Assembly (NCBI GenBank): GCA_902521835.1
Contig: CABYTH010000001.1
Location: forward strand, 22,602-86,601
DNA: 64,000 nt
Reading direction: 5' to 3'
DNA from: an uncultured Alphaproteobacteria bacterium
GTDB lineage: Bacteria; Pseudomonadota; Alphaproteobacteria; HIMB59
Under the pieces are notes generated by a model that saw nothing but the letters and a program-made list of their open reading frames with translations, was not told the DNA's origin and did no database searches. This document shows, piece by piece, positions 671 to 24,030 of this stretch. Position numbers and translations under genes: made by a program. Each line of letters opens with the position of its first letter. The stretch's first letter is position 1.

Positions 671-1219
671 CTATTTTTTTGTTGGTTTCTTAAGTTTCAT
701 TCCGGTTCCTCCAAGTTGCATGCCACCAGAACCTTTACACAAACTTTTCTTTTCTTTGTCACACTTTTCTATCTTCTTATCTTTTTTCTCTTCTTTTTTG
801 ACAACCTCTTTTTCTTCTTTCTTTTCTTCTGATTTTACTTCCTGATTTACAATTTTTGTATCTGAGGAAGGCTCAACATTTTGAACTGTGTTGACAGATC
901 CAACCTGAATATTAGAGAGCATTTCTAATATTTGATCTTGTTTTGATAGTTTATCTTTCTGTTTTGCCTTCCAAGATTTTGGTAGTTTTAAATCGATACA
1001 ACTCTCAGAACCGCAAAAAAGGACATCCCCAGTTTCATTATCAAATAAAAAACCACCGCAATTTTCAACACCTTTTTGAGTACAATTTGGGATGTGCATC
1101 TCATACTCTGCATTCAAATTCATCGATAATAATGGCAAACTTAGAAGAAGTACAAAAATATATCTCATCAACTTATAATGTATCATTTGTAGAAAAAATT
1201 TTCTAAATCTTTTATTCAT
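671..1219 (-). CDS. Hypothetical exported protein (probable true start ~1168, MRYIF...)
   Basis: Signal-peptide-like MRYIFVLLLSLPLLSMNLNA, Cys-containing N-domain, K/E-rich low-complexity tail. Confidence 0.6.
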   Translation of the reverse strand: MNKRFRKFFLQMIHYKLMRYIFVLLLSLPLLSMNLNAEYEMHIPNCTQKGVENCGGFLFDNETGDVLFCGSESCIDLKLPKSWKAKQKDKLSKQDQILEMLSNIQVGSVNTVQNVEPSSDTKIVNQEVKSEEKKEEKEVVKKEEKKDKKIEKCDKEKKSLCKGSGGMQLGGTGMKLKKPTKK

Positions 1220-1826
1220 ACTTAAAACTCTCTCCAGGTAATGTTGATTTCATAAAATCATTCTTGGTAATATTTTCTAACCATTTTTTTAATTTAATAT
1301 TATTGTCTCCCCAAGCATCAGTAAATCTAAATGATGTATAGTCTAATGCACAGGCAACAGATATTTGATCAATCGTTAACTTGTCAGTCACGAACTCATC
1401 ATATTTTCTTTCAATCCAATCAATGGATCTTAAAATTTTTTTCTCATATCGCTCTATAGATTTATGTCTTTGCTCTAATTCTGGTATAGCTGACATTTCT
1501 ATATAACGATTAACTGCATTTTCCATAATTCCATTTGAAACACTTATCATTGTCATACTTTCCCAATAACGATCTTTTGGATATATAGAGTCTTTTTTTG
1601 AAATACTATCAAAGTACAAACAAATATTATCACTGTCTGTGATCGTTTTATCACCAACTATTAAAGTAGGAACTTGTCTTAATGGATTAAATTCATCTAG
1701 AAATCTTGATTTATAAATATTTATCTTTTCTTCTTTATGAGCAACGTCTAATACAAGAGCAGATATTTTACATTTTCTTCCAAAAGGAGATGTAGGCCCA
1801 TTATATAAAAGTGGAGTATCTGTCAT
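1212..1826 (-). CDS. Glutathione S-transferase family protein
   Basis: N-terminal TSPFGRK, NPLRQVPTL and DSDNI motifs; C-terminal ACALDYTSFRF. Confidence 0.85.
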   Translation of the reverse strand: MTDTPLLYNGPTSPFGRKCKISALVLDVAHKEEKINIYKSRFLDEFNPLRQVPTLIVGDKTITDSDNICLYFDSISKKDSIYPKDRYWESMTMISVSNGIMENAVNRYIEMSAIPELEQRHKSIERYEKKILRSIDWIERKYDEFVTDKLTIDQISVACALDYTSFRFTDAWGDNNIKLKKWLENITKNDFMKSTLPGESFKYE

Positions 1827-2045
1827 TTAATCTATTATTATAGCAACAGTGCCAGGGCTTACACCCTCTTGGTCATTCCTAATGTTAACTTGAGTTATCG
1901 TTCCACTAACTGGAGCGTTATGATTGACCTCTGATTTCATAACTTCCATAATAAATAATATATCCCCCTCACTTACTTCATCACCAACTTCAACTAAAAC
2001 TTTCCATATGTTACCTGGAACTGACGTTAAAACTTCTGTAGACAT
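1827..2045 (-). CDS. Stand-alone biotin carboxyl carrier (biotin/lipoyl attachment) protein
   Basis: VPGNIWKVLVEVGDEV...MEVMKSE (biotinyl-Lys motif)...APVSGTI. Confidence 0.9.
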   Translation of the reverse strand: MSTEVLTSVPGNIWKVLVEVGDEVSEGDILFIMEVMKSEVNHNAPVSGTITQVNIRNDQEGVSPGTVAIIID

Positions 2046-2046
2046 G

Positions 2047-3015
2047 TTATATGACACTTCCCATTGAGCAGATGGAGGTTTGTTCAGATCTCATTTCCTG
2101 TGCCTCTTGCACACTTATTTCTTTAAACTTAAATTTTTCATTTGGTTTAGCTTGTCCTAATTTCCAAAAAGAGGCTGATGGAACAGTAAAAGGTACAATA
2201 AACCCACCCATACTAGGCCCATCATTTACGAGTATTATTGGCGTTTGACCCGCCAAATTAATACCACCAATTGGGTAGCCCTGATCTATTATATTTGAGG
2301 GTTCATAGCCATGTTCAGGAGATTTATTTGTAGCTTTTTCGGTAAAACTTAAAGTGGGTCCATCCAACCTAAATCCAGTACGATCACTTCTTGCTTGAAG
2401 TTTCCACTCTGCTTTTAGAAAAGTGTCATATCCTTCATCGTCAAGCCAATCATCATTTGGACCACGTACAACCTCAATTTCCCAAATACCACTATTGCTA
2501 ATTTCTGGAATTGAGTCAGTTCTAATTTTTCTGCCGATCTTCCCATTTGCTTGACCTAAAGGAATTTTTTGACCGTCTTTCAAAGCATGACCATCAATGC
2601 CACCAACGCCTGCTTTGTGAAAAGTTGATTGAGAGTTTAGCCATTTTTCTGACTCAATGCCACCAGCAAAAGACACATAAGATCTTGCACCAGATACTGT
2701 AAAACCCATTTCAAGAGTTTGTCCAGATTTTATTAAAACACTCTCCCACATAGGAATAGAATTTCCATTTATTTTGGGTTGCATATCCGCACCACAGACT
2801 GCAATGACGTGATCTTTTTCAAATTTTAAAGTTGGACCAGTGTACTGACACTCAAGTGCTGCAAAACTCTCCTCATTACCTACAAGTAAATTGGCAAGTC
2901 GAAAAGACCAACTATCCATTGGCCCTGAGGGAGGAAACCCTTGGTTAAGATAACCGACTCTCCCAGGATAATCTTGCACTGATGTTTCTAGTCCTTGTTT
3001 AATAACTTCAAACAT
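2047..3015 (-). CDS. pxpC: PxpC / urea carboxylase-like carboxyltransferase subunit (AHS2 domain)
   Basis: TSVQDYPGRVGY, GFPPSGPMD, ANLLVGN, SDRTGFRL, DGPSMGGF motifs. Confidence 0.85.
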   Translation of the reverse strand: MFEVIKQGLETSVQDYPGRVGYLNQGFPPSGPMDSWSFRLANLLVGNEESFAALECQYTGPTLKFEKDHVIAVCGADMQPKINGNSIPMWESVLIKSGQTLEMGFTVSGARSYVSFAGGIESEKWLNSQSTFHKAGVGGIDGHALKDGQKIPLGQANGKIGRKIRTDSIPEISNSGIWEIEVVRGPNDDWLDDEGYDTFLKAEWKLQARSDRTGFRLDGPTLSFTEKATNKSPEHGYEPSNIIDQGYPIGGINLAGQTPIILVNDGPSMGGFIVPFTVPSASFWKLGQAKPNEKFKFKEISVQEAQEMRSEQTSICSMGSVI

Positions 3016-4278
3016 TTAAAACTTCTTATTGTAATCTAGTTTAGACAACCAGTTTTTATATTTTTTGATGGAAAACTTATGCTCTTCAATTAAATCATAT
3101 CGATATGATTTATCTTCAACTTTTTTTTCAATCATTTCAAACTCATCATAATCACAAGGCACAAATTTAATTCTATCTCCTGGCCTAAATAGACAAATAC
3201 TATCTTTAAAAACATCAAAATTTTTGTCAGGATCCCAAATGGGAACAGGGGTTCTTCCAAAAATTTGATAACCTCCAGGTAGTCTATCAGGATAAATAGC
3301 TGTGGACGATCCCCCCATACCCACAGTTCCTTTTGGTGTCCATGTTCTAGGTGGGTTATACTTTGGAGCGGTTAATTTACACCTAGGGTCAAGCGGCATT
3401 GTAAATGGTAAACCAGGCCAAAAACCGAGCGAAGCCACCCAATACTCAGTTCCAGAGTGAACTCTGACAAAATGATTAACATCATCTAATTGATTTAATT
3501 CTGTAATGAACTCAGGATCTGGCTTTTTCATTGTGATTTTAGCTATATAGTCTTCAATTGCTTCTTTAGTCCATTTGTCAAGATAGACAGTCGGGAAATG
3601 AAAAAGTCTGCTATTTACAACTGTATCATCATTATCTTTCATATCTTTAAGCAATGACTTCAATTCATTAATTAAATCTTGAAAGCCTATATCATCTGGA
3701 TTGTAGTGAACTATCATTGAGGCAAAACATGGGAGTGTTTCGTAAACTCCCTTAATATTTGCTGTCTTAATTAAATTTGATAGTCCCTGCGCTTTAAAGT
3801 TCAATTCTAAATTCATCACATTACCAAATTCTATTAATAAATACTTATCACCACCTGGTAAAAACTTTGGCTCAGGGTAAATTCCTTGAAATATCTCTGA
3901 GGTTTTATCTTTTGTATTCTTTGAATCTAAATTGGGATAAGAGCCATCCTCGTTTATATGTTTTTTTACGGAGAGTTTACTAATATTTAATTTAGGTTGA
4001 GAGATATTATGAGGATACATATTTTTGAAACTAGCATAATCGTCAACATCGAGTTGAGAGAATAAAATATCATCAAGTTTTTTCGATTTGTCTTGAGATA
4101 AATGGCTCTCTAAATTTTCAAATTTTGAAATCTCGTGATTTAAATAATTAAATTCAATATTATTATTTTCTTTTTGCGAGGAACCTATCTTGTTTTTTTT
4201 TAATAACTCATCTTTAGGATTGGATAAATCTATTTTATCAAATAAATCTAAATCTGTATTTTTATATTCTTGAACCAT
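3016..4278 (-). CDS. pxpB: PxpB / carboxyltransferase subunit (AHS1 domain) with ~130-aa N-terminal extension
   Basis: GGDKYLLIEFG, LGFWPGLPF, APKYNPPRTWTPKGTVGMGG, PGGYQIFGRTP. Confidence 0.85.
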   Translation of the reverse strand: MVQEYKNTDLDLFDKIDLSNPKDELLKKNKIGSSQKENNNIEFNYLNHEISKFENLESHLSQDKSKKLDDILFSQLDVDDYASFKNMYPHNISQPKLNISKLSVKKHINEDGSYPNLDSKNTKDKTSEIFQGIYPEPKFLPGGDKYLLIEFGNVMNLELNFKAQGLSNLIKTANIKGVYETLPCFASMIVHYNPDDIGFQDLINELKSLLKDMKDNDDTVVNSRLFHFPTVYLDKWTKEAIEDYIAKITMKKPDPEFITELNQLDDVNHFVRVHSGTEYWVASLGFWPGLPFTMPLDPRCKLTAPKYNPPRTWTPKGTVGMGGSSTAIYPDRLPGGYQIFGRTPVPIWDPDKNFDVFKDSICLFRPGDRIKFVPCDYDEFEMIEKKVEDKSYRYDLIEEHKFSIKKYKNWLSKLDYNKKF

Positions 4279-4283
4279 TGAGT

Positions 4284-6068
4284 TTAAAAATATTTAACTT
4301 TAATTTTTTCTTTGCTCTTAGGTTTATCTGTAAAATCCACTACTTTGACATTTGTAGGTACTGTCGGTTTAATTATTTTATTTTGATTTTCTGCATTACT
4401 ATTAGCATTATGATTTGAATTTTTTGCGCTTGATAAATTATTATCATTAGATTTCTTTTGAGTGTGACCAAACATTCCCTCAAGGATAGTATTTGGATTG
4501 ATATCCTCTTTCTCAAATGTCTCAAATATACTCCCATCCCTAAAAACTAAAACTCGATGACATAGTCCTATGAATTCCTCGAGTTCACTTGATAGAAATA
4601 TCGCTGTACCACCTTCATTTACAAAATTTCTTAAGTGCTTATATAAGTCTCGTTTTGCACCAACATCAATACCTCGCGCTGGATCGTTAAGTATCAGTAT
4701 CTTTGGAGTTGTTGTGAAAGCTCTGGCAATCATGACTTTTTGCTGATTTCCTCCACTCAATGAGGTAATTAGATTATTCTTTGGACCTGTTTTAATACTT
4801 AACCTTTCTACTTCCCAATCAAAAATACCGTTTAATTCCATCCATTTAATAAATCCAATAAATCCACCTGATGTTTTAGCTTGTTTTCCTTTATATAAGG
4901 GTATCACCATATTTTCATATATGCTCATGTTAGGAAAAATACCCTCTTTTTTTCTATCCCCAGATACGTATCCAACTCCACTTTTCTTGGCATCTAACAA
5001 GCTATTTACAGTTGTGTAATCTTTCTTGGTTCTTTCTCGTTCCTCATCAGACTGTTTGACAATTACTTCTCCGCTAAGTGGTTGATCAATACCTGCAAGA
5101 GCCTTAACAAAATTATCTTGTCCTTGTCCATCAAGTCCTGTGACTCCAAGTATCTCACCTTTTGGTAGGTCAAAGTTAATAAAATCTCCATTATCCCAAA
5201 CCTTTAAATCTTTAGCAGATAAAACTATTTCATCTGAGATTGAGTTTGGAGGTGTAGCTTTTATTTCTGATGCTGTAGAAAATTTTTTATCACCCGTCAT
5301 TAGTCCGAGGAGATTTTTTTCAGTAATTTCATCTCCTGCTAAAACTCCAACATCAACACCATCTCTCATAACCGTTGCTCTATCACTTATTCTAACTAGC
5401 TCTGCAATTCTGTGAGTTACTATAAAAATTGCTGCACCTTGATCTCTTAATGTTCTCATTTTTGCAAAAAGTCTCTCTGTAGAGTCAAAATCAAGCGCAG
5501 CTGATGACTCATCTAAAATTAGTACTTTAGGATTTCTTAAAAATGCTCTACCAATAGTTATCCAAGCTTTCATACCAAGCGATAATTGACTTGCTATTGT
5601 ATATGGATCGACAAATTCACCGGATAGCTCTAACATTATAGAGGCAGCTTTTTCGACCCTATCTCGATGTGCTAATTTTTTTCCAAAAAAAGAGTCATAT
5701 CCAATAAATAAATTTTCATAAACAGTAGCCTCTTCAGCTATCATTACTTCTTGAAAAACTGTTGCAATACCAACTCTTTGGGCTTCAATTGGGGAATTGG
5801 GTGAATGACCCATAATAGAGACCTTTCCTTTGTCCAAAGGTAAAACTCCTGAAATAACCTTTGCCAATGTGCTCTTACCACATCCATTACCACCGACAAT
5901 GGCGTGTATTTCACCAAAGTTAGCTTTGAAATTTACACCGTTTAGGGCTTTTGTAACACCAAAGGACTTTGATGCATCTTGAACATATATATCTCCTCCG
6001 ACCTTAGAGGAGTTAGACTGTGCCCCATTCCCGTTTGGGGCACTGTCCAAAGTTTTTTCTTCATTCAT
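4284..6068 (-). CDS. Sugar-type (CUT2/RbsA-like) ABC transporter ATPase, two NBDs, with C-terminal tail
   Basis: Walker A GGNGCGKST, ILDESS, LSGGNQQKV, LNDPARGIDVGAK. Confidence 0.92.
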   Translation of the reverse strand: MNEEKTLDSAPNGNGAQSNSSKVGGDIYVQDASKSFGVTKALNGVNFKANFGEIHAIVGGNGCGKSTLAKVISGVLPLDKGKVSIMGHSPNSPIEAQRVGIATVFQEVMIAEEATVYENLFIGYDSFFGKKLAHRDRVEKAASIMLELSGEFVDPYTIASQLSLGMKAWITIGRAFLRNPKVLILDESSAALDFDSTERLFAKMRTLRDQGAAIFIVTHRIAELVRISDRATVMRDGVDVGVLAGDEITEKNLLGLMTGDKKFSTASEIKATPPNSISDEIVLSAKDLKVWDNGDFINFDLPKGEILGVTGLDGQGQDNFVKALAGIDQPLSGEVIVKQSDEERERTKKDYTTVNSLLDAKKSGVGYVSGDRKKEGIFPNMSIYENMVIPLYKGKQAKTSGGFIGFIKWMELNGIFDWEVERLSIKTGPKNNLITSLSGGNQQKVMIARAFTTTPKILILNDPARGIDVGAKRDLYKHLRNFVNEGGTAIFLSSELEEFIGLCHRVLVFRDGSIFETFEKEDINPNTILEGMFGHTQKKSNDNNLSSAKNSNHNANSNAENQNKIIKPTVPTNVKVVDFTDKPKSKEKIKVKYF

Positions 6069-6080
6069 TAATTACTTAAA

Positions 6081-7241
6081 TTAAAGTAATGCTTCTCCAC
6101 GATCGAAGAAATTATTTAAGTATTCATCACTAGCCCAGTTTTCAATTCCAACAGTTCTAAACTCACTTGAGTTTCTGTCACAATCTTCAGGAACAAATGA
6201 CTGAATAGTCTCAACATCTTCTTCATATGGAGGAACTAAGATAGACTGGATTTTAAGACCCTGACCATACATAGTTCTTAAAAGAACATTCATCGCAAAC
6301 TCTGCATCATCTCCAGGAGGCCATGCATAGACCGCTCTGTCGATAAAGTCTGGATTATTTCTCCAATAGCAGAATGCACCAATTTCTCCACCCAAAGCCA
6401 TAGGCACCATTGGTCTTCCAGATGATTCTAGAGCGTTAAGTGCTCCGGACTCTCCTGAAGACTGAACAGCAAATCCGTCAACTTGGATTGTGTTAGCTGA
6501 TAACCATTTTTGAAGTTCAGCTTGAGCAATTTGTGGTGTCCACATGTGTGCAATTTCAGCAACAACAGTAATGTCTGGATATTCTGCAAATCCATCTAGC
6601 ATACCTTGGTGCTGTGAGTCAGATGCTGATGTTCCAGGAATTCCTTCCATGATAACAACATTACCTTCACCACCAATAGTTTCTGCTAACCATTGTGCAA
6701 TATAATATCCGGTTAATTTGTAGTTAACAGATGTACTGATAGCATATTCTGAAGTTAAGTATCCTGTCATTGATGCAGTAGGAACACCTTTTCCGTACGC
6801 ATACTCAATAGTTGGATTTAATGCAACAGGATTTGAGCAACAGACTATTAATCCATCAACTCCTTGATCAGTTAACTGTCTCATTTGTTGAATTTGAACC
6901 GCGTCTTTTAGATTAGATTGTGTAACAACGATATCGTTAAGAATACCTGCTGCTTTCATTTTTGGTAAATAGTCACCATACAATCTCTCCATCACACCTT
7001 TTCTCCATAGATTACCTGCGTAAGAACTTGCATAACCGATAGTCCAAGGAAGTGGTCTATCACTTTTCCAATTTCTGTATACACTTTCACCAAGCGGTTG
7101 GTTAGGATCCATAAAGTCAGGATTATAAACGAAGTCTCTAATATCAGCTGGAATTTCGTCTAAAATGTCAGCATTTAAGTTACCTGCGACACCGACAAAA
7201 CTAACAGCTAAAATAGCTATGAACTTTTTAAGCAATGTCAT
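6081..7241 (-). CDS. ABC transporter periplasmic substrate-binding protein (Peripla_BP/RbsB-like)
   Basis: Signal peptide MTLLKKFIAILAVSFVGVAGNLNA; AGGAGG RBS ~9 nt upstream of ATG 7241; MEGIPGTSAS segment. Confidence 0.88.
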   Translation of the reverse strand: MTLLKKFIAILAVSFVGVAGNLNADILDEIPADIRDFVYNPDFMDPNQPLGESVYRNWKSDRPLPWTIGYASSYAGNLWRKGVMERLYGDYLPKMKAAGILNDIVVTQSNLKDAVQIQQMRQLTDQGVDGLIVCCSNPVALNPTIEYAYGKGVPTASMTGYLTSEYAISTSVNYKLTGYYIAQWLAETIGGEGNVVIMEGIPGTSASDSQHQGMLDGFAEYPDITVVAEIAHMWTPQIAQAELQKWLSANTIQVDGFAVQSSGESGALNALESSGRPMVPMALGGEIGAFCYWRNNPDFIDRAVYAWPPGDDAEFAMNVLLRTMYGQGLKIQSILVPPYEEDVETIQSFVPEDCDRNSSEFRTVGIENWASDEYLNNFFDRGEALL

Positions 7242-7311
7242 AGTTTTATCCTCCTTACTTATATATAAGTATCTATAATAATACCTATATTCTGAAAAAT
7301 ATAAGCAAAAT

Positions 7312-7330
7312 TGTTCCAACATGTGGAAAA
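7312..7330. promoter_or_regulatory. Palindromic operator candidate, copy 1 (TGTTCCA-acatg-TGGAAAA), in the divergent SBP/pxpA promoter
   Basis: 7-5-7 inverted repeat that recurs at 13395 and 19592. Confidence 0.7.
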
Positions 7331-7388
7331 GATTTTCACATAAAAGCCTGATTTTCTGTAAATTATAAATGAGAGGAATTTATTATTC

Positions 7389-8174
7389 ATGGTCGATTTG
7401 AATTGCGATATGGGTGAGGGTTTTGGTATTTACTCCTTCGCAGATGACGAAGAAATAATGCCTTTTATAGATGCTGCTAATGTAGCCTGTGGGTTTCACG
7501 CCTCAGACCCAAACACAATGAGGAAAACTGTCGAGCTCGCAAAAAAATATGATGTGAAAGTTGGATCGCACCCTGCCTATCCTGACTTAGTAGGATTTGG
7601 AAGAAGGCCGATGAAAATGAAACGTGATGAAATCAAAAATCTTGTGATGTATCAAACTGGTGCCATCAAAGCCTTTCTTGATGAGTATGGAATGCCATTA
7701 AACCATATCAAACCTCATGGATCTTTATATGGTGTCTCCGCGAAAGAGGAAGATGTGGCTCATGGAATTGCTGATGCAGCTGAAATTTTTAATGTTGGTA
7801 TTTTTGGAATGGTTAATACTTTTCACGAAAAAGTATACAAAGAAAGAGGAATAAAATTTTACGGAGAATTTTACTCTGACTTGGAATATGATGAAACAGG
7901 TTATTTGGTTATAGCCAAGGGTCGAAATAAATATTATCCAACTGATAGAGCTGTGGAGCGTTGTTTAAGAGCAATGAATGAAAATAAAGTTAAAACTGTT
8001 CAAGGAAACGATGTAGTTGTAGGATGTGAAACAATTTGTGTCCACTCTGACACTCCTAATGCTGTAGAAATCTTAAAGGCTCTGAGAGAAAAAATTTCCT
8101 CTGATAAAAAAATTCCACAAAAAACTTCAAACGGCAATCATAACAAAATGCCTTATATCGTTGATAAGAAATGA
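7389..8174 (+). CDS. pxpA: LamB/YcsF family protein (5-oxoprolinase subunit A-like)
   Basis: DLNCDMGEGFG, ANVACGFHASDP, HPAYPDLVGFGRR, HIKPHGSLY, TICVHSDTP. Confidence 0.92.
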   Translation: MVDLNCDMGEGFGIYSFADDEEIMPFIDAANVACGFHASDPNTMRKTVELAKKYDVKVGSHPAYPDLVGFGRRPMKMKRDEIKNLVMYQTGAIKAFLDEYGMPLNHIKPHGSLYGVSAKEEDVAHGIADAAEIFNVGIFGMVNTFHEKVYKERGIKFYGEFYSDLEYDETGYLVIAKGRNKYYPTDRAVERCLRAMNENKVKTVQGNDVVVGCETICVHSDTPNAVEILKALREKISSDKKIPQKTSNGNHNKMPYIVDKK

Positions 8175-9673: not shown

Positions 9674-9678
9674 TTATA

Positions 9679-13347: not shown

Positions 13348-13394
13348 AAAAATGTCTTTAATCAACAGATTTTGTTGTTTTTACAATGAATATT

Positions 13395-13413
13395 TATTTC
13401 AAAATATGAAACA
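13395..13413. promoter_or_regulatory. Palindromic operator candidate, copy 2 (TATTTCA-aaata-TGAAACA), upstream of the rhodopsin-flotillin operon
   Basis: Same 7-5-7 inverted repeat as 7312 and 19592; 57 nt before the rhodopsin ATG. Confidence 0.62.
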
Positions 13414-13470
13414 AAAATTATTATTAGTTAAAGAGGACGGGTAATATGTATTTAAGAGGAATAAGTTTTA

Positions 13471-14172
13471 ATGAATAAAATGCTTCTCCCTTACGACATT
13501 GTAGGGGGGTCTTTCTGGTTAATTTCTGTTGGCATGATTGGTGCCACATTGTTTTTCTTTTTTGAGCGTAGCAAAGTAAGCACAAGATTTCATACACCGA
13601 TGACAATGATAGCTGTTGTATGCTTGATGTCCTCTATACATTATTTTTTCGTAAAAAATCTCTGGGTAGTCAGCGGCACCGCCCCGACTTTATTAAGATA
13701 TATAGATTGGTTTCTTAACTTTCCAATGCTTGTGCTTATTTTTTATGCAATGCTTATGTCAGTTGTCAAAGTTAAACAAGGTATGTTCTGGAGATTATTG
13801 GTTGGAACTTTAGTTTTTGTTGTAGCAGGTTTCTTAGGTGCAGCGGGTTATATGAGCAAGACATTAGGTTTCATTGTTTGGTTAGCTGGATGGTTGTACA
13901 TCCTCGGTGAGCTATATGTTGGAGAAGCCGGCAGAGCAAATGCTAGATGCGGAAACGAAAATGTACAAATGGTTTTCTTCTCGAACAGACTTATTATCAC
14001 AATTGGATGGGCTATATATCCAATGGGATATTTCATAGAGCATTTGGGCGGGGGCATTGACCCCAATAGTGTTAATGTAATTTATAATTTAGCAGACTTT
14101 TTAAATAAAATAGTTTTTGGTTTAATAATTTACAAAGCAGCAATACAAGACATGAGAGTTAATGGACAATAA
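13471..14172 (+). CDS. Microbial rhodopsin, proteorhodopsin paralog with DNI motif (flotillin-associated rhodopsin, FArhodopsin type)
   Basis: Seven TM segments; RYIDWFLNFPMLVLIF (D79/N83/I90), GWAIYP, NLADFLNK (Schiff-base K213); directly upstream of flotillin. Confidence 0.92.
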   Translation: MNKMLLPYDIVGGSFWLISVGMIGATLFFFFERSKVSTRFHTPMTMIAVVCLMSSIHYFFVKNLWVVSGTAPTLLRYIDWFLNFPMLVLIFYAMLMSVVKVKQGMFWRLLVGTLVFVVAGFLGAAGYMSKTLGFIVWLAGWLYILGELYVGEAGRANARCGNENVQMVFFSNRLIITIGWAIYPMGYFIEHLGGGIDPNSVNVIYNLADFLNKIVFGLIIYKAAIQDMRVNGQ

Positions 14173-16197: not shown

Positions 16198-16587
16198 ATG
16201 AGTATAGATGTAAAATCCTGGGCAAAAAAATATAAAGAGCTTACTGAAAAAGATGAAACCATAAAAGCGATGGCTAAATATTATACTTGTTCATTTCTTT
16301 TCGACATGGGTAGTGTGAAAGTAATTATCGAGATGCACGATGGAAAGGTAAAAAATATTAATACCAACCCTGGAGGTTTAGATCCATATGACTTTGCATT
16401 AAGGGCATCAGAGCAAACATGGAGAGAGTTTGCAAAGCCTGTTCCAAAACCTATGTTTCATGGTATCTATGCAGCCTCATTTAGAGAAGACCTTAAAATC
16501 GAGGGCAATCATTTAGTCTTAATGCAAAATCTTAGAAACTTTACTGTTCAATTTGAATTGCTAAGGCAATCAGGAGTTCCAGTATGA
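16198..16587 (+). CDS. SCP2-like (sterol carrier/lipid-binding) small protein
   Basis: DFALRASEQTWREF and LKIEGNH..LMQNL resemble the SCP2 fold; adjacent to an alpha/beta hydrolase. Confidence 0.6.
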   Translation: MSIDVKSWAKKYKELTEKDETIKAMAKYYTCSFLFDMGSVKVIIEMHDGKVKNINTNPGGLDPYDFALRASEQTWREFAKPVPKPMFHGIYAASFREDLKIEGNHLVLMQNLRNFTVQFELLRQSGVPV

Positions 16588-16612
16588 TTAAGAAAATTGA
16601 AAGGAAAAATTT

Positions 16613-17476
16613 ATGGCAGTAAAACATCATGACCCAATAGGTAGATATGTTACCATCGAGGTAGATGGTCAACAGTATAAAGTCTTTTATCTTTCAAATG
16701 GAAAAGGTACTCCATTAGTATGTCAGCATACTGCAGGATGTCACAATCATCAGTGGAGAGGATTACTGGAAGATGAAGAAATTACTCAAAATTATCAAGT
16801 TATCGCTTACGACCTTCCAAGACATGGTAAATCAGACCCACCTCATAATACGGAATGGTGGAAAGAGGAATACAAATTAACTGCAGAGCATTATTGTAAT
16901 TTTATAGTAGAACTTTGTAAGGCCCTAGACCTTGAAAACCCTATATTTATGGGTTCTTCATTCGGAGGAAACGTGGCTCTTCAATTAGCTCTGAAGTATC
17001 CTAATAAATTTAAAGCTGTGATCCCTGTCGAGGCTGCGCATTACTCCCCTGGTTTTTATATTGATTGGTGGAGGCATCCTCATGCCAATGCAGCTCAAGT
17101 GTGTGGTAGTGGAGTTTGGGATTTAATGGCTCCACAATCTCCAGATATGGATAGATGGTTAACTTGGCATTATTACACTCAAGGATCAGAGGCTTTTAAA
17201 GGAGACCTTCATTTTTATTCAGTTGATCATGATTTAAGAGATGAGCTACAAAATATCGATGGTCACAAGTGCCCTGTTATCATGCTGACTGGTACTTATG
17301 ACTACCTAACCCCTCCCGAAGCAACAGAAGATACTGCCAGACAAATAAAAGGAGGAGTTTATATTGAAATGAGAGATATTGGTCATTTCCCGATGAGTGA
17401 AAACCATGAAGTCTTTAGAGTATATTTATTAGAGGCACTCAGAATTATTAAGGAAAAGACTGATTACAACTCTTAA
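16613..17476 (+). CDS. Alpha/beta hydrolase
   Basis: HTAG oxyanion region, YDLPRHGKSDP, GSSFGG nucleophile elbow, GTYDYL Asp, GHFPMSEN His. Confidence 0.88.
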   Translation: MAVKHHDPIGRYVTIEVDGQQYKVFYLSNGKGTPLVCQHTAGCHNHQWRGLLEDEEITQNYQVIAYDLPRHGKSDPPHNTEWWKEEYKLTAEHYCNFIVELCKALDLENPIFMGSSFGGNVALQLALKYPNKFKAVIPVEAAHYSPGFYIDWWRHPHANAAQVCGSGVWDLMAPQSPDMDRWLTWHYYTQGSEAFKGDLHFYSVDHDLRDELQNIDGHKCPVIMLTGTYDYLTPPEATEDTARQIKGGVYIEMRDIGHFPMSENHEVFRVYLLEALRIIKEKTDYNS

Positions 17477-17490
17477 TTCAAGTTTGAGTT

Positions 17491-19545
17491 ATGGTCGCTA
17501 ATCTTTATTGGTTTTTTTTCTTTCTTGTCCTTTATATAAGCTTTTGTCTTTTTTGGGGAGCTAGAACTCTTAGAAAAAATAAAACCCCTGAGGCTTACTA
17601 TTTAGCAGATAGAAGTGTATCTCCTTGGGTATTCTTTTTCTCTGCAACAGTAACTACATTTGCAGGCATAACTATCATTTCTTTTCCATCATTAATTTAT
17701 GCAGATGGATACTCTTTTCTAGCTACTGCTGCAATTGTAATAACAATTCCTCTTGGAAGTATATTATTTTTTAAAAGGCAGTGGATGTTAAGTAGAAAAT
17801 TTAATTTTATCACTCCAGGAGAGATGTATTATAAATATTATCAAAGTAATACTCTTAGAATTGTAGTACTAATAATCGGATTATTTTTTGCTGTTCCATT
17901 TCTTGGTATAATTATTGGATCAACAGGTAATGTTGTAGAGTTTATTAGCGGAGGTGAAATAACCAGAGACTCTGCAATGTGGGCACTAACTGCTGTTGTC
18001 TTATTTTATATAGTATCTGGTGGATTTAAACCCATGGTGAGTGTAAGCGTTGTTCAATCATGGTTATTTTTTGTTTTTTTCTTAGCACTTGGTGTTGGTG
18101 TATTTAATTACTTAGGAGGTTTAAGTTTTTTTGAAGACCTATCTATGGCGAACAGTTTTATGTCGTTTGGAGCTTGGGGAACTACTGGAGGTTACGGAGG
18201 CGGTGATATTTCAGGATATTTCAACGTTCCTGGTGTAATTCAGTGGGTTGCAGGTATTGGAAAAAATAACCCGTTAGGAGGCCCTTGGACAGCAGTTATG
18301 ATTTTATCCTTTACTCTCTCTTATATGGGTATTGTGCTTTCTCCTACATTTTCGATGTGGAGCTATTCAGTAAAATCACCGAGGTCATTTTATTTTTACC
18401 AAGTTTGGGGTTCAGGTGCTGTTGTTGGAATATTTTTATTTATATTCGCCCCTTTATTAGGTGTTGGAGCACATCTTCTTGGAGCTAATAGTATTGTTAA
18501 TTCAAATGGTTTTGCCATTAACCAAATATTCCCTGAGTTAAGTCTACAAAATATATCATCTTTAATTTATGTGTTTGTTGAAAGCTTTAGTAATCTCTCA
18601 CCAATTATTGTTGGATTTTTAGCAATATCTATAATTGCTGCGCTGCAATCTACATTATCTGCTTTTTTAATGACTTCAGGCAGCATGGTGGCAAGAGATC
18701 TCTATAGACCATATATCGATAGTAACCCTACATGGAAAAGGGAGTTATTAGTTGCTAGGTTAGCGATGTTGTTATTAAGCCTAGCGGCATTGTATCTTGC
18801 AACTTTTTTTGAAACTTCTCTAATATTACTTGGTGGATTAGCAATCGCTTTTGGTTTCCAATTATTTCCTGTTTTACTTGGAATGCTTTGGTTTAAATGG
18901 ATCACAAGAGGTGGGGCAATTCTAGGACTCATCACCGGATTAGGTTTTGTAACTTTAGCTGAAACTTTTGGTCATAAGCTAACAGGAAATTCTCTTCCTT
19001 GGGGGCGATGGCCACTAACAATCTACTCTGGGTTATGGGGTTTATTCTTTAATGTGATTGTATGTTTTTTATCCTCTATATTTGCAAGTAACGATACAGA
19101 TAAAGAACATCGAGCATCATTCCACAATTTTTTAAATGAACATATGGGTATTCACCCATCAAGAAAAAAAATAAAATCTCTCGCCTATGTCTTTTTTTTA
19201 ATTTGGGCATTCTTTTCTATTGGTCCAGGTTTAATTTTTGGAAACTTAATATTTGGTAGCGCGGATCAAAGTTATGATAATTGGGTGATGGGAGTCCCTT
19301 CACTATGGGCTTACCAAATAATTTGGTGGGTAGCAGGTATATTTCTAATTTGGTTTTTAGCTAATAAGATGGACTTATCGACTTTGCCAAAAAAACCTAT
19401 ACTAAATGGTGATGAATATTTGGCACCTGACGATGTTGAGGAACAAGGAAACTATATTGATAGAATGGGAGGCGGATATGGTTGGCCACTTATATTAATA
19501 GGAATGGCTGTGGCAACTGTAATACTTTCCGTTTATGCATTATGA
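17491..19545 (+). CDS. Sodium:solute symporter (SSS) family transporter
   Basis: YYLADRS, FITPGEM, AALQST, GSMVARDLYR; more than 13 TM segments. Confidence 0.88.
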   Translation: MVANLYWFFFFLVLYISFCLFWGARTLRKNKTPEAYYLADRSVSPWVFFFSATVTTFAGITIISFPSLIYADGYSFLATAAIVITIPLGSILFFKRQWMLSRKFNFITPGEMYYKYYQSNTLRIVVLIIGLFFAVPFLGIIIGSTGNVVEFISGGEITRDSAMWALTAVVLFYIVSGGFKPMVSVSVVQSWLFFVFFLALGVGVFNYLGGLSFFEDLSMANSFMSFGAWGTTGGYGGGDISGYFNVPGVIQWVAGIGKNNPLGGPWTAVMILSFTLSYMGIVLSPTFSMWSYSVKSPRSFYFYQVWGSGAVVGIFLFIFAPLLGVGAHLLGANSIVNSNGFAINQIFPELSLQNISSLIYVFVESFSNLSPIIVGFLAISIIAALQSTLSAFLMTSGSMVARDLYRPYIDSNPTWKRELLVARLAMLLLSLAALYLATFFETSLILLGGLAIAFGFQLFPVLLGMLWFKWITRGGAILGLITGLGFVTLAETFGHKLTGNSLPWGRWPLTIYSGLWGLFFNVIVCFLSSIFASNDTDKEHRASFHNFLNEHMGIHPSRKKIKSLAYVFFLIWAFFSIGPGLIFGNLIFGSADQSYDNWVMGVPSLWAYQIIWWVAGIFLIWFLANKMDLSTLPKKPILNGDEYLAPDDVEEQGNYIDRMGGGYGWPLILIGMAVATVILSVYAL

Positions 19546-19591
19546 TGATAAAGTACTTAAAATTGAGGAGGAATAAGAATTTTTCGTATTG

Positions 19592-19610
19592 TGTTTCATT
19601 ATTTGGAACA
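19592..19610. promoter_or_regulatory. Palindromic operator candidate, copy 3 (TGTTTCA-ttatt-TGGAACA), upstream of the DMFase operon
   Basis: Same 7-5-7 inverted repeat; 40 nt before ATG 19651. Confidence 0.7.
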
Positions 19611-19650
19611 AAAAACTGTGCGAAAGGTTAACTATATTTAAAATATAATT

Positions 19651-20079
19651 ATGTCTGATTACAGCTACAAGCATCCCTCAAACGTCCAATTAAATAAAGG
19701 ACATAAACACACTGATGATTTTATTACCAAAAAATACATTTTAAAAATGTTGAGAGATCCTCAAAAATTAAAATCTTTAATTGAAGAACACAGAGCAACT
19801 CCAGTTGGAAGGGCTGCTACTCGAGACCATGGTGTCATTCAGCATAGCCAAGATCTCCAAACATTATTAGATAAGTTAAGAAGAGGAAGTAAAGAAAATG
19901 GTTTTGTAACTGTTTGTTTAAGAAGACATGAAGATTATAGAGTTGGAATAACAACAGGAGTTAGAGGTGAGCCAGTTGAAATAACTGAAGACTCTTATTC
20001 ATCTGAAGAGGCATGTGAACATGCAATATTTTTAAAAAGAATTAACAGACTTCTTGAGGAGTATAGCGGGGAAGAGTAA
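19651..20079 (+). CDS. dmfA1: N,N-dimethylformamidase small (alpha) subunit-like protein
   Basis: IEEHRATPVG...HSQDLQ...YRVG...RGEP...SEEACEHAIFLKRI matches the DMFase small-subunit pattern; stop overlaps the large-subunit start (TAATG). Confidence 0.78.
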   Translation: MSDYSYKHPSNVQLNKGHKHTDDFITKKYILKMLRDPQKLKSLIEEHRATPVGRAATRDHGVIQHSQDLQTLLDKLRRGSKENGFVTVCLRRHEDYRVGITTGVRGEPVEITEDSYSSEEACEHAIFLKRINRLLEEYSGEE

Positions 20080-22433
20080 TGTTAAAAATAACAGGTTATA
20101 GCGATAAGTACTCAGCTCATCCAGGTGAAGAAGTTAAATTTTATATTAATGCAGAATACAATGATAGTTATGAAGTTCAATTAGTCCGTCTTATACACGG
20201 TGATACAAATCCTGAAGGCCCTGGGTATAAAGAAGCTGAAATAGATGCCAGTTGTAATGGAACTTATCAAGGGAAAAACCAGAGAATACATGGTGGATCG
20301 TACATCATCATGCCTCAGCATGATAATTTAAATTTAGAGAGCTTTACTATGCAAGCTTATATTTTTCCTACAACGCCAGATAAAGGTAGACAAGGAATTT
20401 TCACTAAATTTAATGAAGAAGAAAAAAAAGGCTATGGTCTCTTCATTAATGATGAGGGATGTTTATCTGTAGAAATAGGAGATGGATCTCAGGTTGTTAC
20501 TGTCTCCTCAGAAAAAAAACTTTTAAGAAAAGTTTGGTATCTGGTAATTGCAACATTTGATGCACAATCAAGAAGGCTTACCCTTCACCAAGAACCTAGG
20601 GTTACATCCACAAATGGTGGTTTAGGTATGGCTATTTTGAATCCAATTGAAGAAACCTCAGCTATTATTGAGACCACTAGTTCAGTTTTACCTGCCGCTA
20701 ATGATGCTCCATTGTTAATTGCAGCTACTACATTAAATAATAGATCTGGTAGGCACATTTCCGGAGGTCATTTTAAAGAAGTACCTCATCCCATTGAATT
20801 ACCTGAGCAAACCAAGACTTTTAATGGCAAGATAGACAGACCTAGATTATCTAATATCGCGCTATCGAAGGCTGAGATCGAAACACTTGCATCAAGCTAT
20901 GATGAGTGTAATACCACTGTCAGGTCAACAGTCGTAGGCGCTTGGGACTTTCATGCGAATATTGGCAAAAACATTGCTTCAACAAAGATTGTTGATACTT
21001 CTCCAAATAATCACCACGGATTTATTATTAATATGCCAAATAGAGGTATGACTGGACATAACTGGACAGCGGATGAAATGGTTTTCCATCACAAACCTGA
21101 AGAGTACGGAGCTATCCATTTCCATGATGATGATATCGATGATGCAAGATGGGATGTTGATTTTACATTAAAAATCCCAGAGGGTCTGAAAAGTGGTGTG
21201 TATGCTGCTCGACTTAGAGTTGATGGAAGAGAAGAGTCAGAAAATGAAGATTATATTCCTTTTTGTGTAAAACCTCCAAGAGGGACAGCCACAGCTAAAA
21301 TTTTATTTCTCTTACCCACAAACAGTTATATGGCTTACTCCAATGATAATCTTGGAACTAATTCTGTCGTAGCTCAATTACTCGCAGGTAAAGTTCCTGT
21401 GCTAGAACCTGCAGATTTATATTTAAATGAACACAGAGAATATGGTTTATCAACTTACTCACTTCACTCTGATGGACATGGTGTATCTATTTCATCAAGA
21501 CTTAGACCAATCCTTAATATGAGACCTAAATACAGACACTGGCTTTCTCCATCATTATGGCAACTAAATGCCGACTTACATTTAACAGACTGGCTTGAGG
21601 AAAAGGGCTTTGAGTTTGATGTTCTTACAGATGAAGATTTGGAACATGAAGGTATAAATTTATTAAATCGTTATAAAGTCGTGATGACTGGAAGTCACCC
21701 TGAGTATTCATCTGAGAAATATATGGACGCCTTAGAGTCCTATCAAATGCAAGGTGGTAGATGTTTTTATTTAGGTTCGGATGGATTTTACTGGATTAGT
21801 GAATATCATCCAGACAACTCCAATATTACTGAAGTACGAAAAGGTGAGGCTGGCACAAGAGCATGGACATCTAACCCAGGTGAATACAATAATGCCTTTG
21901 ATGGTAAATATGGAGGTATGTGGAGAGCTCGAGGAAGAATACCTTCTAAAGTTTGTGGTTTAACTTTTACATCATATGGATTTGACGTTTCTTCATACTA
22001 CAAAAGAGAAGAAGATAGCTTTAAACCTGAATGTTCATGGATCTTTGAAGGGATTGGAGCAGATGAGGTTATTGGTGACTTTGGTTTAGTTGGTGGAGGA
22101 GCTGCTGGTTTAGAATTAGATAGGTACGACTTAGAGTTTGGAACTCCACATAATGCATATTATTTGGCTCGTTCACAAGATCACTCTAATATGATGTTGC
22201 AAGTTAACGAGGAAATACACTTTGCTGTTCGCGGCTACTATGGCGGTGGTCATGAAAATCCAATGGTAAGAGCTGATATGATTTACTATAAAACACCTAA
22301 TAACGGAGCTATGTTTGCACCAGGGTCTTTGGCTTGGTGCGGTAGTCTTTCACATAATAATTATAATAATAATGTCTCCAGAATTATGGAAAACACTCTT
22401 AAAGGTTTTTTAAAGGACGGGCCTTTACCTTAA
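20079..22433 (+). CDS. dmfA2: N,N-dimethylformamidase large (beta) subunit family protein
   Basis: VRLIHGDTNPEGPG, LamG-like N-domain, YGAIHFHDDD, PTNSYMAYSN, GLSTYSLHSDG, GSHPEY, GGGAAGLELDR. Confidence 0.92.
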   Translation: MLKITGYSDKYSAHPGEEVKFYINAEYNDSYEVQLVRLIHGDTNPEGPGYKEAEIDASCNGTYQGKNQRIHGGSYIIMPQHDNLNLESFTMQAYIFPTTPDKGRQGIFTKFNEEEKKGYGLFINDEGCLSVEIGDGSQVVTVSSEKKLLRKVWYLVIATFDAQSRRLTLHQEPRVTSTNGGLGMAILNPIEETSAIIETTSSVLPAANDAPLLIAATTLNNRSGRHISGGHFKEVPHPIELPEQTKTFNGKIDRPRLSNIALSKAEIETLASSYDECNTTVRSTVVGAWDFHANIGKNIASTKIVDTSPNNHHGFIINMPNRGMTGHNWTADEMVFHHKPEEYGAIHFHDDDIDDARWDVDFTLKIPEGLKSGVYAARLRVDGREESENEDYIPFCVKPPRGTATAKILFLLPTNSYMAYSNDNLGTNSVVAQLLAGKVPVLEPADLYLNEHREYGLSTYSLHSDGHGVSISSRLRPILNMRPKYRHWLSPSLWQLNADLHLTDWLEEKGFEFDVLTDEDLEHEGINLLNRYKVVMTGSHPEYSSEKYMDALESYQMQGGRCFYLGSDGFYWISEYHPDNSNITEVRKGEAGTRAWTSNPGEYNNAFDGKYGGMWRARGRIPSKVCGLTFTSYGFDVSSYYKREEDSFKPECSWIFEGIGADEVIGDFGLVGGGAAGLELDRYDLEFGTPHNAYYLARSQDHSNMMLQVNEEIHFAVRGYYGGGHENPMVRADMIYYKTPNNGAMFAPGSLAWCGSLSHNNYNNNVSRIMENTLKGFLKDGPLP

Positions 22434-22436
22434 ATT

Positions 22437-22796
22437 ATGAAAAAACTAAATATGCAGGAGATCCCATGGGGAAAAGAAACACTTGGAGCTCTTGATACTC
22501 CTTTAAATGAACTAGAAAAAAAAGCACTTCAAAATTTAGACGTAGATAAATTAAATGATATGGCAGAGTGCCTTTTTGCTTTAAATAACAGGCATTATGG
22601 TCCTATACCTGGAACATATATGGTCATGTGTGTTGAACCCGGTAAGACCTGGTGTGTTGGACAGCTCAGTGCTGATAGAGCAAAACCTTTTGTTCTTTTT
22701 CCTGAACTTGTTTTCGACTCAGTTGAAAAAGCAACAAAAGCTGCCGAAGCTCTAAAGGCTGAAAAAGCTGAGGGCGTACCCTGTAGAAATATCTAA
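22437..22796 (+). CDS. Second, divergent DMFase small-subunit-like protein
   Basis: PIPGTYMVMCVEPGKTWCVGQLSADRAKPFVL...VFDSVEKA parallels the C-half of 19651..20079. Confidence 0.5.
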   Translation: MKKLNMQEIPWGKETLGALDTPLNELEKKALQNLDVDKLNDMAECLFALNNRHYGPIPGTYMVMCVEPGKTWCVGQLSADRAKPFVLFPELVFDSVEKATKAAEALKAEKAEGVPCRNI

Positions 22797-22800
22797 CGAC

Positions 22801-23076
22801 ATGGCTAAAGCCAATGTCATGATAGATAATCAAAAAACCAGAGTTACAGAGTGGTCTTTTGAAGTTGGGGACTCAACTGGTCAGCATATCCATGAATACG
22901 ATTATGTGGTAGTACCCTTGCTAGATGGGGAACTAAAAATTGTTAATCATGATGGCGAGGAAACAATTTCAAAACTAGCAAAAGGTGGATCTTACTTTAG
23001 AGAAAAGGGAGTTAACCACAATGTATTTAATAACAATGATTTTATTTACAAATTTATTGAGATAGAATTTAAATAG
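22801..23076 (+). CDS. Small cupin (BauB-like)
   Basis: RVTEWSF..G..TGQHIHEYDYVVVP...SYFREKGVNHNV cupin motifs. Confidence 0.8.
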   Translation: MAKANVMIDNQKTRVTEWSFEVGDSTGQHIHEYDYVVVPLLDGELKIVNHDGEETISKLAKGGSYFREKGVNHNVFNNNDFIYKFIEIEFK

Positions 23077-24030
23077 ATGGAAAAAAAATTAAGCGTAAGT
23101 TACAAAAAATCTGATTTGGATCAATTTGATAAAATTATTACTAATAAACAGACGGATCAAAAAGTTAAAGAATATTCCATAAAAGAAGCAATTGAAAAGT
23201 CAAAAAAAGAATATAGTCACTTGACGAACTCACAAGTTTCTACTGATATGAGACTCTATATGTTTCAGACCGGCACACTAAAAACAAAAATGAAATATAT
23301 AAAAATGAACCAATCTAATGAGGATTTTGAGATACCTGTTCCATGGTTTTTGATTAGACACCCAAAAGGGGATGTGGTAATTGACGGAGGCAATGCAAAA
23401 GAGGTTAGTGAAGATAAACATGCTCATTGGGGTTCTGTTGTTGCTGCTTATGATCCAATTATGGGAAAAACTGAAAATTGTATTGATCAACTTAACTCTA
23501 TTGGGGTTAATCCAGCAGGTATAAGATACGTCTTACATTCTCATCTTCACCTCGATCACTCAGGTGGTGTTGGAAGGTTTCCTAATGCAACACACCTAGT
23601 TCAACAAAAGGAATATGATTATGCTTTTAATCCTGATTGGTTCTCAAAGCCTGCTTATATTAGAAAAGACTTTGATAAACCTGGAATTAATTGGAAATTT
23701 TTAAGAGATAAAAATGATGACTTTTATGACTTATATGGCGACGGATCAATAATTGTAATTTTTACTCCGGGGCATGCACCGGGCCATCAGTCTTTTTTAG
23801 TTAATTTACCAAATTCAGGTTATGTATTGCTTACTATAGATGCAGCTTACACAATGGATCATTGGAACAATTTAACACTACCAGGTCTTGTTTGCTCTGC
23901 TGTTGACGTTGTTGACTCTGTAAAAAAACTCAAAAAAATTGCAAAAGACAAAAATGCTACAGTAGTCACAGGGCACGACCCGCATGCTTGGGAAGAATTT
24001 AAAAAAGCCCCAATGTTTTATTACGACTAA
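23077..24030 (+). CDS. N-acyl homoserine lactonase family metallo-beta-lactamase (AttM/AiiB-like) with ~55-aa N-terminal extension
   Basis: HSHLHLDHSG (HxHxDH), TPGHAPGHQS, IDAAY, GHD. Confidence 0.88.
   Translation: MEKKLSVSYKKSDLDQFDKIITNKQTDQKVKEYSIKEAIEKSKKEYSHLTNSQVSTDMRLYMFQTGTLKTKMKYIKMNQSNEDFEIPVPWFLIRHPKGDVVIDGGNAKEVSEDKHAHWGSVVAAYDPIMGKTENCIDQLNSIGVNPAGIRYVLHSHLHLDHSGGVGRFPNATHLVQQKEYDYAFNPDWFSKPAYIRKDFDKPGINWKFLRDKNDDFYDLYGDGSIIVIFTPGHAPGHQSFLVNLPNSGYVLLTIDAAYTMDHWNNLTLPGLVCSAVDVVDSVKKLKKIAKDKNATVVTGHDPHAWEEFKKAPMFYYD

Follow-up and report, generated by a model that had tools for sequence, protein, structure and literature searches.

FArhodopsins (flotillin-associated rhodopsins, FAR) are carried by very abundant bacteria of the ocean; what they do was left undecided, as the authors knew of no cultured host. 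What such a rhodopsin does beside a flotillin among catabolic genes is the question raised by a 64,000-nucleotide stretch of DNA (the window) from an uncultured alphaproteobacterium of the HIMB59 lineage (assembly GCA_902521835.1, contig CABYTH010000001.1, positions 22,602 to 86,601), in which both are encoded within a cluster at 1212–24030. The initial annotation took this cluster for a candidate new system in which the pair scaffolds amide and lactam catabolism. Profile searches placed the named genes where it had put them. The available part of Haro-Moreno 2023 (PMC10308929) already describes a FAR cluster of about 26 kb with N,N-dimethylformamidase (DMFase), PxpA, biotin carboxyltransferases, SCP2 and a sodium:solute symporter (SSS), so that the system as such is not new; its link to a regulon, its tag code and its cultured models appear to be. 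The catabolic, non-light reading of the pair was supported, with regulator and pathway now more precisely named. A probability of about 0.55 is given to the reading, drawn from sequence comparison, in which the HIMB59 form of the cluster is an IclR-activated unit for the uptake and hydrolysis of small neutral lactones and amides, with enzymes tethered by peptide tags. The analysis supplies cultured, non-pathogenic hosts, a substrate shortlist, a candidate regulator whose sites are placed exactly, and a pair of peptide tags. If the reading is true, FAR would move from light biology to the scavenging of dissolved organic matter, natural DMFase homologues would be linked to marine methylamine cycling, and a case would be added of motif-coded tethering of enzymes to an ATP-binding cassette (ABC) transporter.

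Only three intergenic gaps of the cluster exceed 100 nt (7242–7388, 147 nt; 13348–13470, 123 nt; 19546–19650, 105 nt), and gene spacing within the transcription units is −11 to 27 nt. The single palindrome that had been proposed for the three promoter regions was recovered by pattern and matrix scans, with a 17-bp RTTYCA-N5-TGRAAH element in each long gap: at 7313–7329 (GTTCCAACATGTGGAAA, common to a divergent pair of units), at 13396–13412 (ATTTCAAAATATGAAAC) and at 19593–19609 (GTTTCATTATTTGGAAC). In all four promoter directions, including both strands at the first site, the distance from the end of the palindrome to a following TANNNT hexamer (−10 box) is 29 nt; in the third gap this hexamer lies a few nucleotides before the ATG of a likely leaderless transcript. 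Matches by chance were found in about 1–2% of shuffles per region, with a consensus partly derived from these same sites. With a matrix built from 12 methylamine-cluster sites alone, the window sites ranked 1st, 4th and 10th in 945,666 bp (scores 20.7, 16.8 and 14.8), with the next true intergenic region at 10.7. The palindrome arms are retained and the spacer is variable in HIMB59-type loci, the site being present before FAR in 49/49, before DMFase in 43/44 and, within two mismatches, before LamB in 41/41, where the sixth-most divergent site is maybe a chance match. The 29-nt geometry was kept in 44/49, 43/44 and 40/41 of these loci, respectively, and at 6 of 10 methylamine sites. The arms fit RTTYCR-N5-YGRAAY with 0–1 mismatch and the spacers fit only partly, when compared with GTTYCRYW3RYGRAAC, given as the consensus operator of IclR group 1 in the available part of PMC8222616. 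A sigma-54, extracytoplasmic function or RpoH promoter reading was rejected by eye, the alignments being without a conserved −12/−10 partner.

The strict form GTTYCA-N5-TGRAAC was found 25 times in seven genus genomes, 14 times in a methylamine cluster and seven times at FAR promoters, two of these seven being assigned by distance from flotillin. A reversed-pattern control gave 2 sites against 17 with the true pattern (five genomes). In the genus an IclR gene is flanked by the palindrome on either side and has as neighbours tmm, tdm and gmaS, which all pass curated cut-offs; mgs- and mgd-type genes, a betaine/trimethylamine N-oxide-type ABC transporter and Amt lie in the same neighbourhood. 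Of 70 genus genomes (mean completeness 77%), 54 yielded the IclR protein, and four of five near-complete relatives have exactly one IclR_C match; four of five IclR-less genomes tested are also without tmm, as would be expected from gaps in assembly or from loss of the cluster as a whole. From these sequences it is very probable that the FAR cluster and the methylamine genes share one IclR-type regulon. The IclR of the methylamine cluster would bind the operator in all four promoters and is probably an activator, because the site lies just upstream of poor −35 boxes. It should also be noted that the methylated-amine cluster is large, with IclR, tmm, tdm, three type III glutamine-synthetase paralogues and two mgsABC-type sets (G020:C4:100000-131000, L078 and L079; G029:C45, L081 and L082), and that the word "methylamine" is absent from the main text of the AEGEAN-169 paper as far as available (PMC10308909).

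The HIMB59 operator was found upstream of FAR in 0 of 11 SAR11 loci and an IclR in 0 of 5 SAR11 FAR genomes, these being incomplete; the Pseudothioglobus cluster has a TorT-annotated binding protein, a hybrid kinase and a LuxR-type regulator in the available part of Table S2 of PMC10308929. As judged from SAR11 lacking both site and IclR and from the other regulators of Pseudothioglobus, the regulation of FAR clusters is rewired between lineages. The TorT-annotated protein may be a loose second link to methylated amines. The initial annotation had staked its case on operator and tags recurring in orthologous loci; the operator did not recur in SAR11, and the tags described below are conserved.

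What the cluster would serve is best seen in cultured hosts. The FAR cluster was found by a plasmid search in Hoeflea IMCC20628, Martelella AD-3 and Pararhizobium gei. The Rhizobiales order is an IclR gene divergent from SCP2, hydrolase, AttM, periplasmic binding protein (SBP), ATPase, two permeases, FAR, flotillin, a 141-aa membrane protein, SSS and an iron-type alcohol dehydrogenase (Fe-ADH), with succinate semialdehyde dehydrogenase (SSADH) in addition in Martelella; a Shinella variant is without AttM. Eighty metagenome loci of this Rhizobiales type were collected, with flanks of up to 10 kb, many of them short. Where the upstream flank was long (n=31), SBP, ATPase, SCP2 and hydrolase were present in 30, IclR in 26 and AttM in 25; where the downstream flank was long (n=34), all had SSS and 28 the Fe-ADH. 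DMFase and Pxp/biotin carboxylase matches were found in 0 of the 80, and these modules are lineage add-ons. The tie between the FAR-flotillin pair and the DMFase and pxp genes, on which the initial annotation relied, is thus partly loosened: all 80 loci and four cultured isolates have the pair without them. The 141-aa protein (e.g. L127:21705-22130) lies between flotillin and SSS in 33 of 34 long Rhizobiales-type loci, has no Pfam family and is absent in HIMB59 and SAR11.

The IclR, ADH, SSADH and AttM proteins are 41–62% identical to BlcR, BlcB, BlcA and BlcC of Agrobacterium, the Rhizobiales values being 41–42% for IclR, 53% for ADH and 58% for the Martelella SSADH. Identity of the Fe-ADH to BlcB ranges over about 45–53% and that of the SSADH to BlcA over 57–58%. 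In the window, the AttM/BlcC-type lactonase (23077–24030, +) carries an N-terminal extension, scores 427 bits against NF045700 (cut-off 390) and is 62% identical to C58 BlcC. The source genome further encodes a BlcB-like Fe-ADH at 20053–21216 of contig C1, 1.4 kb left of the window, and an SSADH homologue at 9466–10923 of the same contig. Only the Rhizobiales form has the blcABC-type genes together in one operon with a divergent BlcR; they are dispersed in HIMB59, and in SAR11 the ADH lies inside the FAR cluster. The blcABC products convert gamma-butyrolactone via gamma-hydroxybutyrate (GHB) to succinate semialdehyde, according to the available part of PMC3907764. A core pathway from lactone via GHB to succinate semialdehyde is probable on this sequence evidence, because the cultured Rhizobiales link a BlcR-like IclR, AttM, a BlcB-like ADH and, in Martelella, SSADH to FAR-flotillin. 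By homology and gene context the solute would be imported by SSS (17491–19545, +, PF00474) and by an ABC transporter consisting of a sugar-type SBP (6081–7241, −, PF13407), a CUT2-type ATPase (4284–6068, −) and two PF02653 permeases, the first extended (9679–11952 and 11956–13347, +). The SBP start is probably at 7241, with a ribosome-binding site, and not at 7322. AttM would then open a gamma-butyrolactone-type ring to GHB, which the BlcB-like Fe-ADH would oxidize to succinate semialdehyde. The Agrobacterium blcR-blcABC (attJKLM) locus shares similar GTTCA..TGAAC sites with the Rhizobiales cluster. It differs from the FAR cluster in lacking transporters, FAR, flotillin and tags, and its regulator BlcR represses; in HIMB59 the geometry of the site suggests activation, by an IclR of another clade.

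Two further genes, always paired, belong to this core. The first (16198–16587, +) encodes an SCP2-fold protein, the assignment in the initial annotation being backed by a model (pLDDT 91.5) and a Foldseek match (2cx7, TM 0.70). The second (16613–17476, +) encodes an alpha/beta hydrolase with a GSSFG motif, whose best NCBIfam match is PcaD, below cut-off, and which is 78% identical to the Rhizobiales copy. In Peribacillus, Rhodococcus and Agrobacterium the pair lies ahead of an SSADH or aldehyde dehydrogenase gene, SSADH being the case for Peribacillus and Rhodococcus aetherivorans; it follows muconate cycloisomerase in Alloyangia and has neither dehydrogenase nor muconate cycloisomerase alongside in a halophilic archaeon. 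From these neighbours we infer that the pair would handle a butenolide, as isomerase and enol-lactonase. A literature search linking furanone with succinate semialdehyde and enol-lactonase gave no usable paper. The trigonelline and homarine pathways were considered and set aside, as the cluster is without an oxygenase.

The add-on genes of the marine form include a biotin enzyme, for which the initial annotation gave pxpB and pxpC. PxpA (LamB/PxpA, 7389–8174, +) passes its family cut-off (NF003814); the proposed PxpB (88 vs 146) and PxpC (173 vs 500) fail theirs and score better as split urea-carboxylase type, and these two names were replaced. The carboxyltransferase A/B subunit (2047–3015, −; LamA-like type) reaches 307 bits with TIGR02712, compared with 173 for PxpC, and its best PDB match is 3va7. 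The other parts are a biotin carboxyl carrier protein (BCCP; 1827–2057, −, PF00364) with an EVMKS biotinylation-type motif at 1932–1946, a carboxyltransferase C/D (CT_C_D) subunit with an N-terminal extension of 135 aa (3016–4278, −) and a biotin carboxylase with a C-terminal tail (8171–9673, +), both from profile matches. A test for urea carboxylase itself failed: the split genes are below the TIGR02712 cut-off and the equivalent of Asp1584 is absent, although that of Lys1605 is retained, these two being what we take to be the catalytic pair. By its homologies the biotin enzyme is thus of split urea-carboxylase type and not plain PxpABC, which has no biotin parts. Urea carboxylase and Aspergillus LamA-LamB have the biotin carboxylase, BCCP and carboxyltransferase (CT) domains and LamB in common with it, and the closest structure is K. 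lactis urea carboxylase; unlike urea carboxylase, the HIMB59 enzyme is split into four genes. LamA and LamB act in the breakdown of lactams, and LamB and the split biotin enzyme may open lactams in the marine form. A literature search on LamAB gave no usable paper.

The second add-on comprises homologues of the small (19651–20079, +; 6lvb_B, E=0.008) and large (20079–22433, +; 6lvb_A, E=8e-194) DMFase subunits, followed by a second DMF_alpha-family protein (22437–22796, +; PF26354). The small proteins flanking the large subunit do not align with each other, and a plasmid search with the second gave no match. The equivalents of Y399, Y440, H519 and E521 are retained in the large subunit, which presumably represent the Tyr-Tyr-Glu iron site of DMFase, and a literature search on the active-site residues gave no usable paper. 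DMFase peptides have been detected in Pacific metaproteomes (available part of PMC9477243), a P. aminophilus DMFase paralogue was not linked to use of dimethylformamide (available part of PMC4543880), and one family member is an N-acetyl-beta-phenylalanine acylase. Paracoccus DMFase is accompanied by the LuxR-type DmfR, and HIMB59 has instead two small-subunit homologues and an IclR-type site. The HIMB59 enzyme may free methylamine or dimethylamine and formate, and such a product would feed the methylamine pathway, which would explain the co-regulation with the methylamine genes.

The claim that four unrelated proteins of the cluster carry terminal tags stood up, the tags being conserved in orthologues. 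Two patterns were defined. The beta-tag ([IMV][KR][IV][IV][DE]F[DN]) occurs twice on the ATPase, in a disordered tail of about 60 aa (VKVVDF ... IKVKYF, 4287–4349, −), and twice on the biotin carboxylase (IKIVETD ... IKVVYFD, 9584–9670, +), and was found in 40/40 and 44/44 HIMB59 orthologues, respectively. The alpha-tag ([YF]xxxDxxxFxx[IL]) occurs on the CT_C_D subunit (YKNTDLDLFDKI, 4231–4266, −, with a second, weaker copy at 4111–4146; 39/39 HIMB59-type orthologues) and on the lactonase (YKKSDLDQFDKI, 23101–23136, +; 38 of 42 by pattern and the other four by eye). Among 955 ORFs the strict terminal patterns matched only these four proteins and one weak case, and the alpha-tag gave three background matches in 284,000 residues of the source genome. 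In SAR11 the beta-tag recurs on the ATPase, on CT_A_B and in a tag-only ORF; in Rhizobiales-type metagenome loci it is on the tails of 33 of 38 complete ATPases and on 25 of 25 unannotated AttM N-termini, and it is present in 3/3 cultured Rhizobiales isolates. Its linkers vary freely and arrays of four to five copies occur (L199, P0167). It was present in 0 of 138 full-length representatives of other ATPases within the last 60 residues (P0122 having degenerate copies) and on 0 of 3 non-FAR AttMs. The alpha-tag occurs twice in the SAR11 linker between biotin carboxylase and CT and four times on P0121, by length and eye like the 732-aa Pseudothioglobus ATPase; none was found in Rhizobiales-type loci. 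A SAR11 ORF of 170 aa and low complexity consists of tags only (3–4 alpha, 2 beta; L109:3123-3635, −; L111:2888-3409, −; L115:15783-16295, +) and is a candidate cross-linker. As the tags move between unrelated proteins and termini, it is highly likely that they are docking motifs. Public AttM annotations start about 55 codons late and drop the tag-bearing N-terminus (L127:12240-12406; L128:12330-12492; L123:2175-2340), and one SAR11 ABC ATPase is split by a frameshift (L111:3409-5177), an assembly error or pseudogene.

The receptor is less certain, and the chance that it is an enzyme rather than flotillin is put at even. Across loci the alpha-tag goes with DMFase and the beta-tag with the close type of SCP2-hydrolase, and flotillin is present in every locus; five untagged ATPases lie in loci with divergent SCP2 and hydrolase (30–34% and 47–51%, respectively). 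A complex prediction with hydrolase, SCP2, two flotillin C-termini and the ATPase tag scored 0.52 against 0.00 for the best control (contact agreement of at least 65%, partner pLDDT of at least 51), falling to 0.00 when the hydrolase was replaced and SCP2 and the two flotillin pieces were kept; the support is weak. In calibration the mark was reached by 116 of 157 solved pairs and by 2 of 215 mismatched ones, but only 18 of the solved pairs did so at 0.60 or under, as did both mismatches; a pass in that range will be wrong more often than right for a pairing that was not already likely. The two flotillin pieces do not make a ring, so this job gives no verdict on flotillin. Covariation and the modelled complex favour the alpha/beta hydrolase, or SCP2-hydrolase, as candidate receptor of the beta-tag, and covariation the DMFase trio for the alpha-tag. 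If the hydrolase or SCP2-hydrolase holds the beta-tag and the DMFase trio the alpha-tag, transporter and enzymes would be cross-linked, and tethering to the ABC ATPase under a flotillin/rhodopsin patch would keep membrane-permeant intermediates from loss.

It is rather unlikely, though the foremost alternative, that flotillin itself is the receptor, along the lines of the initial annotation; the beta-tag would then join the barrel where the flotillin cage narrows, and transporter and enzymes would be enclosed. The likeness between tag and flotillin strand seen in the initial annotation was borne out (I-K-I-V-E-F-D-x-x-G and IK[IV][LVM][HQD]V[DEN]G), the Rhizobiales flotillin tail reads KIVY[TS], multi-copy tags would suit a ring, untagged loci have long, divergent flotillins, and the cage of human flotillin is tight and has a barrel of 44 strands (available part of PMC11260169). 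However, flotillin is in every locus and the Pseudothioglobus-like ATPase, from a cluster without SCP2 and hydrolase as far as available, has no beta-tag; the alpha-tag is missing where DMFase is missing; L199 has four to five tags and no KIVY tail; and a non-FAR ATPase beside SCP2-hydrolase ends in the tag-like NIVTFD. Equally speculative is the fullest form of the proposal, that a modular two-tag code brings the ABC importer and catabolic enzymes together in a metabolon tethered to the transporter, enclosed by a flotillin cage that has a pentamer of retinal-less rhodopsin at its centre. Such a prokaryotic compartment without a shell would trap small lactones and formamides that pass membranes, and would be tied to the methylamine regulon in the abundant marine HIMB59 cells. 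Some untagged ATPases carry a C-terminal fusion that is YbhB/PEBP-like by eye (L131:11541-13748; L203, L204, L211, L213), in loci with long flotillins and no AttM.

The FAR gene (13471–14172, +) lies directly upstream of flotillin (14200–16188, +) with a gap of 27 nt, and has the HIMB59 signature: D79-N83-I90 (the DNI form of the DTT/DTL/DNI motif), aromatic F84 at the H84 site, G120, W137 and K213. Flotillin has an SPFH domain (PF01145, PF15975), a long helical wall, a cap helix and a barrel-type strand (IKVVDVNG, 15871–15894), which is unformed in a monomer model of low confidence at the C-terminus (pLDDT 64); a PDB search with it gave no sequence relative. It has been proposed that FAR supports proteorhodopsin, which was in all marine FAR genomes studied, with depth-linked abundance (PMC10308929, as far as available), and four of five SAR11 genomes here carry both. 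That FAR and flotillin are co-expressed passengers serving proteorhodopsin or general membrane organisation, beside a catabolic operon regulated as described, is nevertheless improbable: FAR is under the operator common to transporter and enzymes, and in isolates from soil, plants and cold seeps its gene sits between those of permease and flotillin. The helix-G lysine was moreover found in 0 of 66 scored Rhizobiales-type metagenome copies (80 in total, 14 unscored) and is not present in the FARs of cultured Rhizobiales isolates; PsFAR is a retinal-less pentamer in the available part of Kovalev et al. (bioRxiv 10.1101/2025.04.29.651185). Flotillin and the rhodopsin, presumably retinal-less, are predicted to form the membrane scaffold.

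Several points weigh against the IclR-activated, tag-tethered unit. The IclR gene was not found in the source genome (66% complete), where the tdm contig ends inside the methylamine cluster, and neither IclR nor tmm was found in G036 (94% complete), yet the operator is retained there. The methylamine-cluster IclR is only 24–25% identical to BlcR-type IclRs, and many HIMB59-type loci are at least 97% identical and hence not independent. Four of the 25 strict sites lie elsewhere (one coding, the others at rpoC-rpsL, a betaine-type ABC and a tripartite tricarboxylate transporter (TTT)/oxalate operon), and the regulon may therefore be a broad one-carbon regulon. The hydrolase had no close PDB relative and no close characterised relative. 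The Pseudothioglobus cluster is without AttM, SCP2 and hydrolase in the available part of Table S2 of PMC10308929, which excludes lactones as a substrate common to all FAR clusters. The alpha-tag pattern was adjusted to AT-rich genomes, the tag link to Pseudothioglobus is the single context-free protein P0121, and flotillin and FAR are also divergent in the untagged loci, so that this covariation cannot separate the partners. That another or a global regulator binds the palindrome, and that the tags serve degradation or localisation and have no part in an assembly, to which the two IclR-less genomes and the outlying sites might point, is very improbable, given that the IclR gene is flanked by the palindrome and that the tags, confined to the FAR cluster, occupy both kinds of terminus and internal linkers and also make up a tag-only protein. 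The palindromes before the TTT transporter/formyl-CoA transferase operon and the betaine-type ABC transporter may mark further regulon members, the sites being at G029:C41:7895, G002:C1:37560 (L093) and G017:C39:31532 (L103).

Encapsulin cargo-loading peptides and microcompartment peptides target cargo, and CsoS2 and EPYC1 are multivalent linkers. The window tags resemble them in their short motifs, disordered tails, unrelated enzymes and linker-only protein, and differ in that no shell gene is in the cluster, the motifs are unrelated by eye and one carrier is an ABC ATPase. The published FAR cluster has the same genes as the window, with the HIMB59 DNI motif, the retinal-pocket substitutions and the rhodopsin-flotillin tandem. 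FAR-flotillin co-transcription in SAR11 is reported in PMC10308929, in which no cultured genome with two rhodopsins was found, and the available portions of the published accounts report no operator, regulator, tags or cultured host; nor was a paper on these found in the open literature, subscription journals being largely uncovered.

The remaining genes are a cupin (22801–23076, +, PF07883), a HIMB59 add-on, and an accessory glutathione S-transferase family protein (1212–1826, −, Pfam GST_N), which the SAR11 cluster also has. Downstream of the latter lie two small unannotated ORFs, of which 671–1219 (−) is secreted-looking with a 35% match at the SAR11 cluster edge, and 442–669 is by eye like a 66-aa ORF adjoining the SAR11 BCCP. 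Left of the window a MipZ/ParA-type ATPase (contig 21346–21984) adjoins the Fe-ADH, and such a gene borders the SAR11 cluster too. The DMFase unit continues, after a gap of 3 nt following the lactonase, into xylA, and xylA, HAD, an aldo-keto reductase and a sugar ABC region occupy 24034–30566, into which the DMFase promoter may read through. Thirteen runs recorded as RNA contain the stretch, and contigs of four of them, which tell nothing of strand, level or co-transcription, span all 30 bins.

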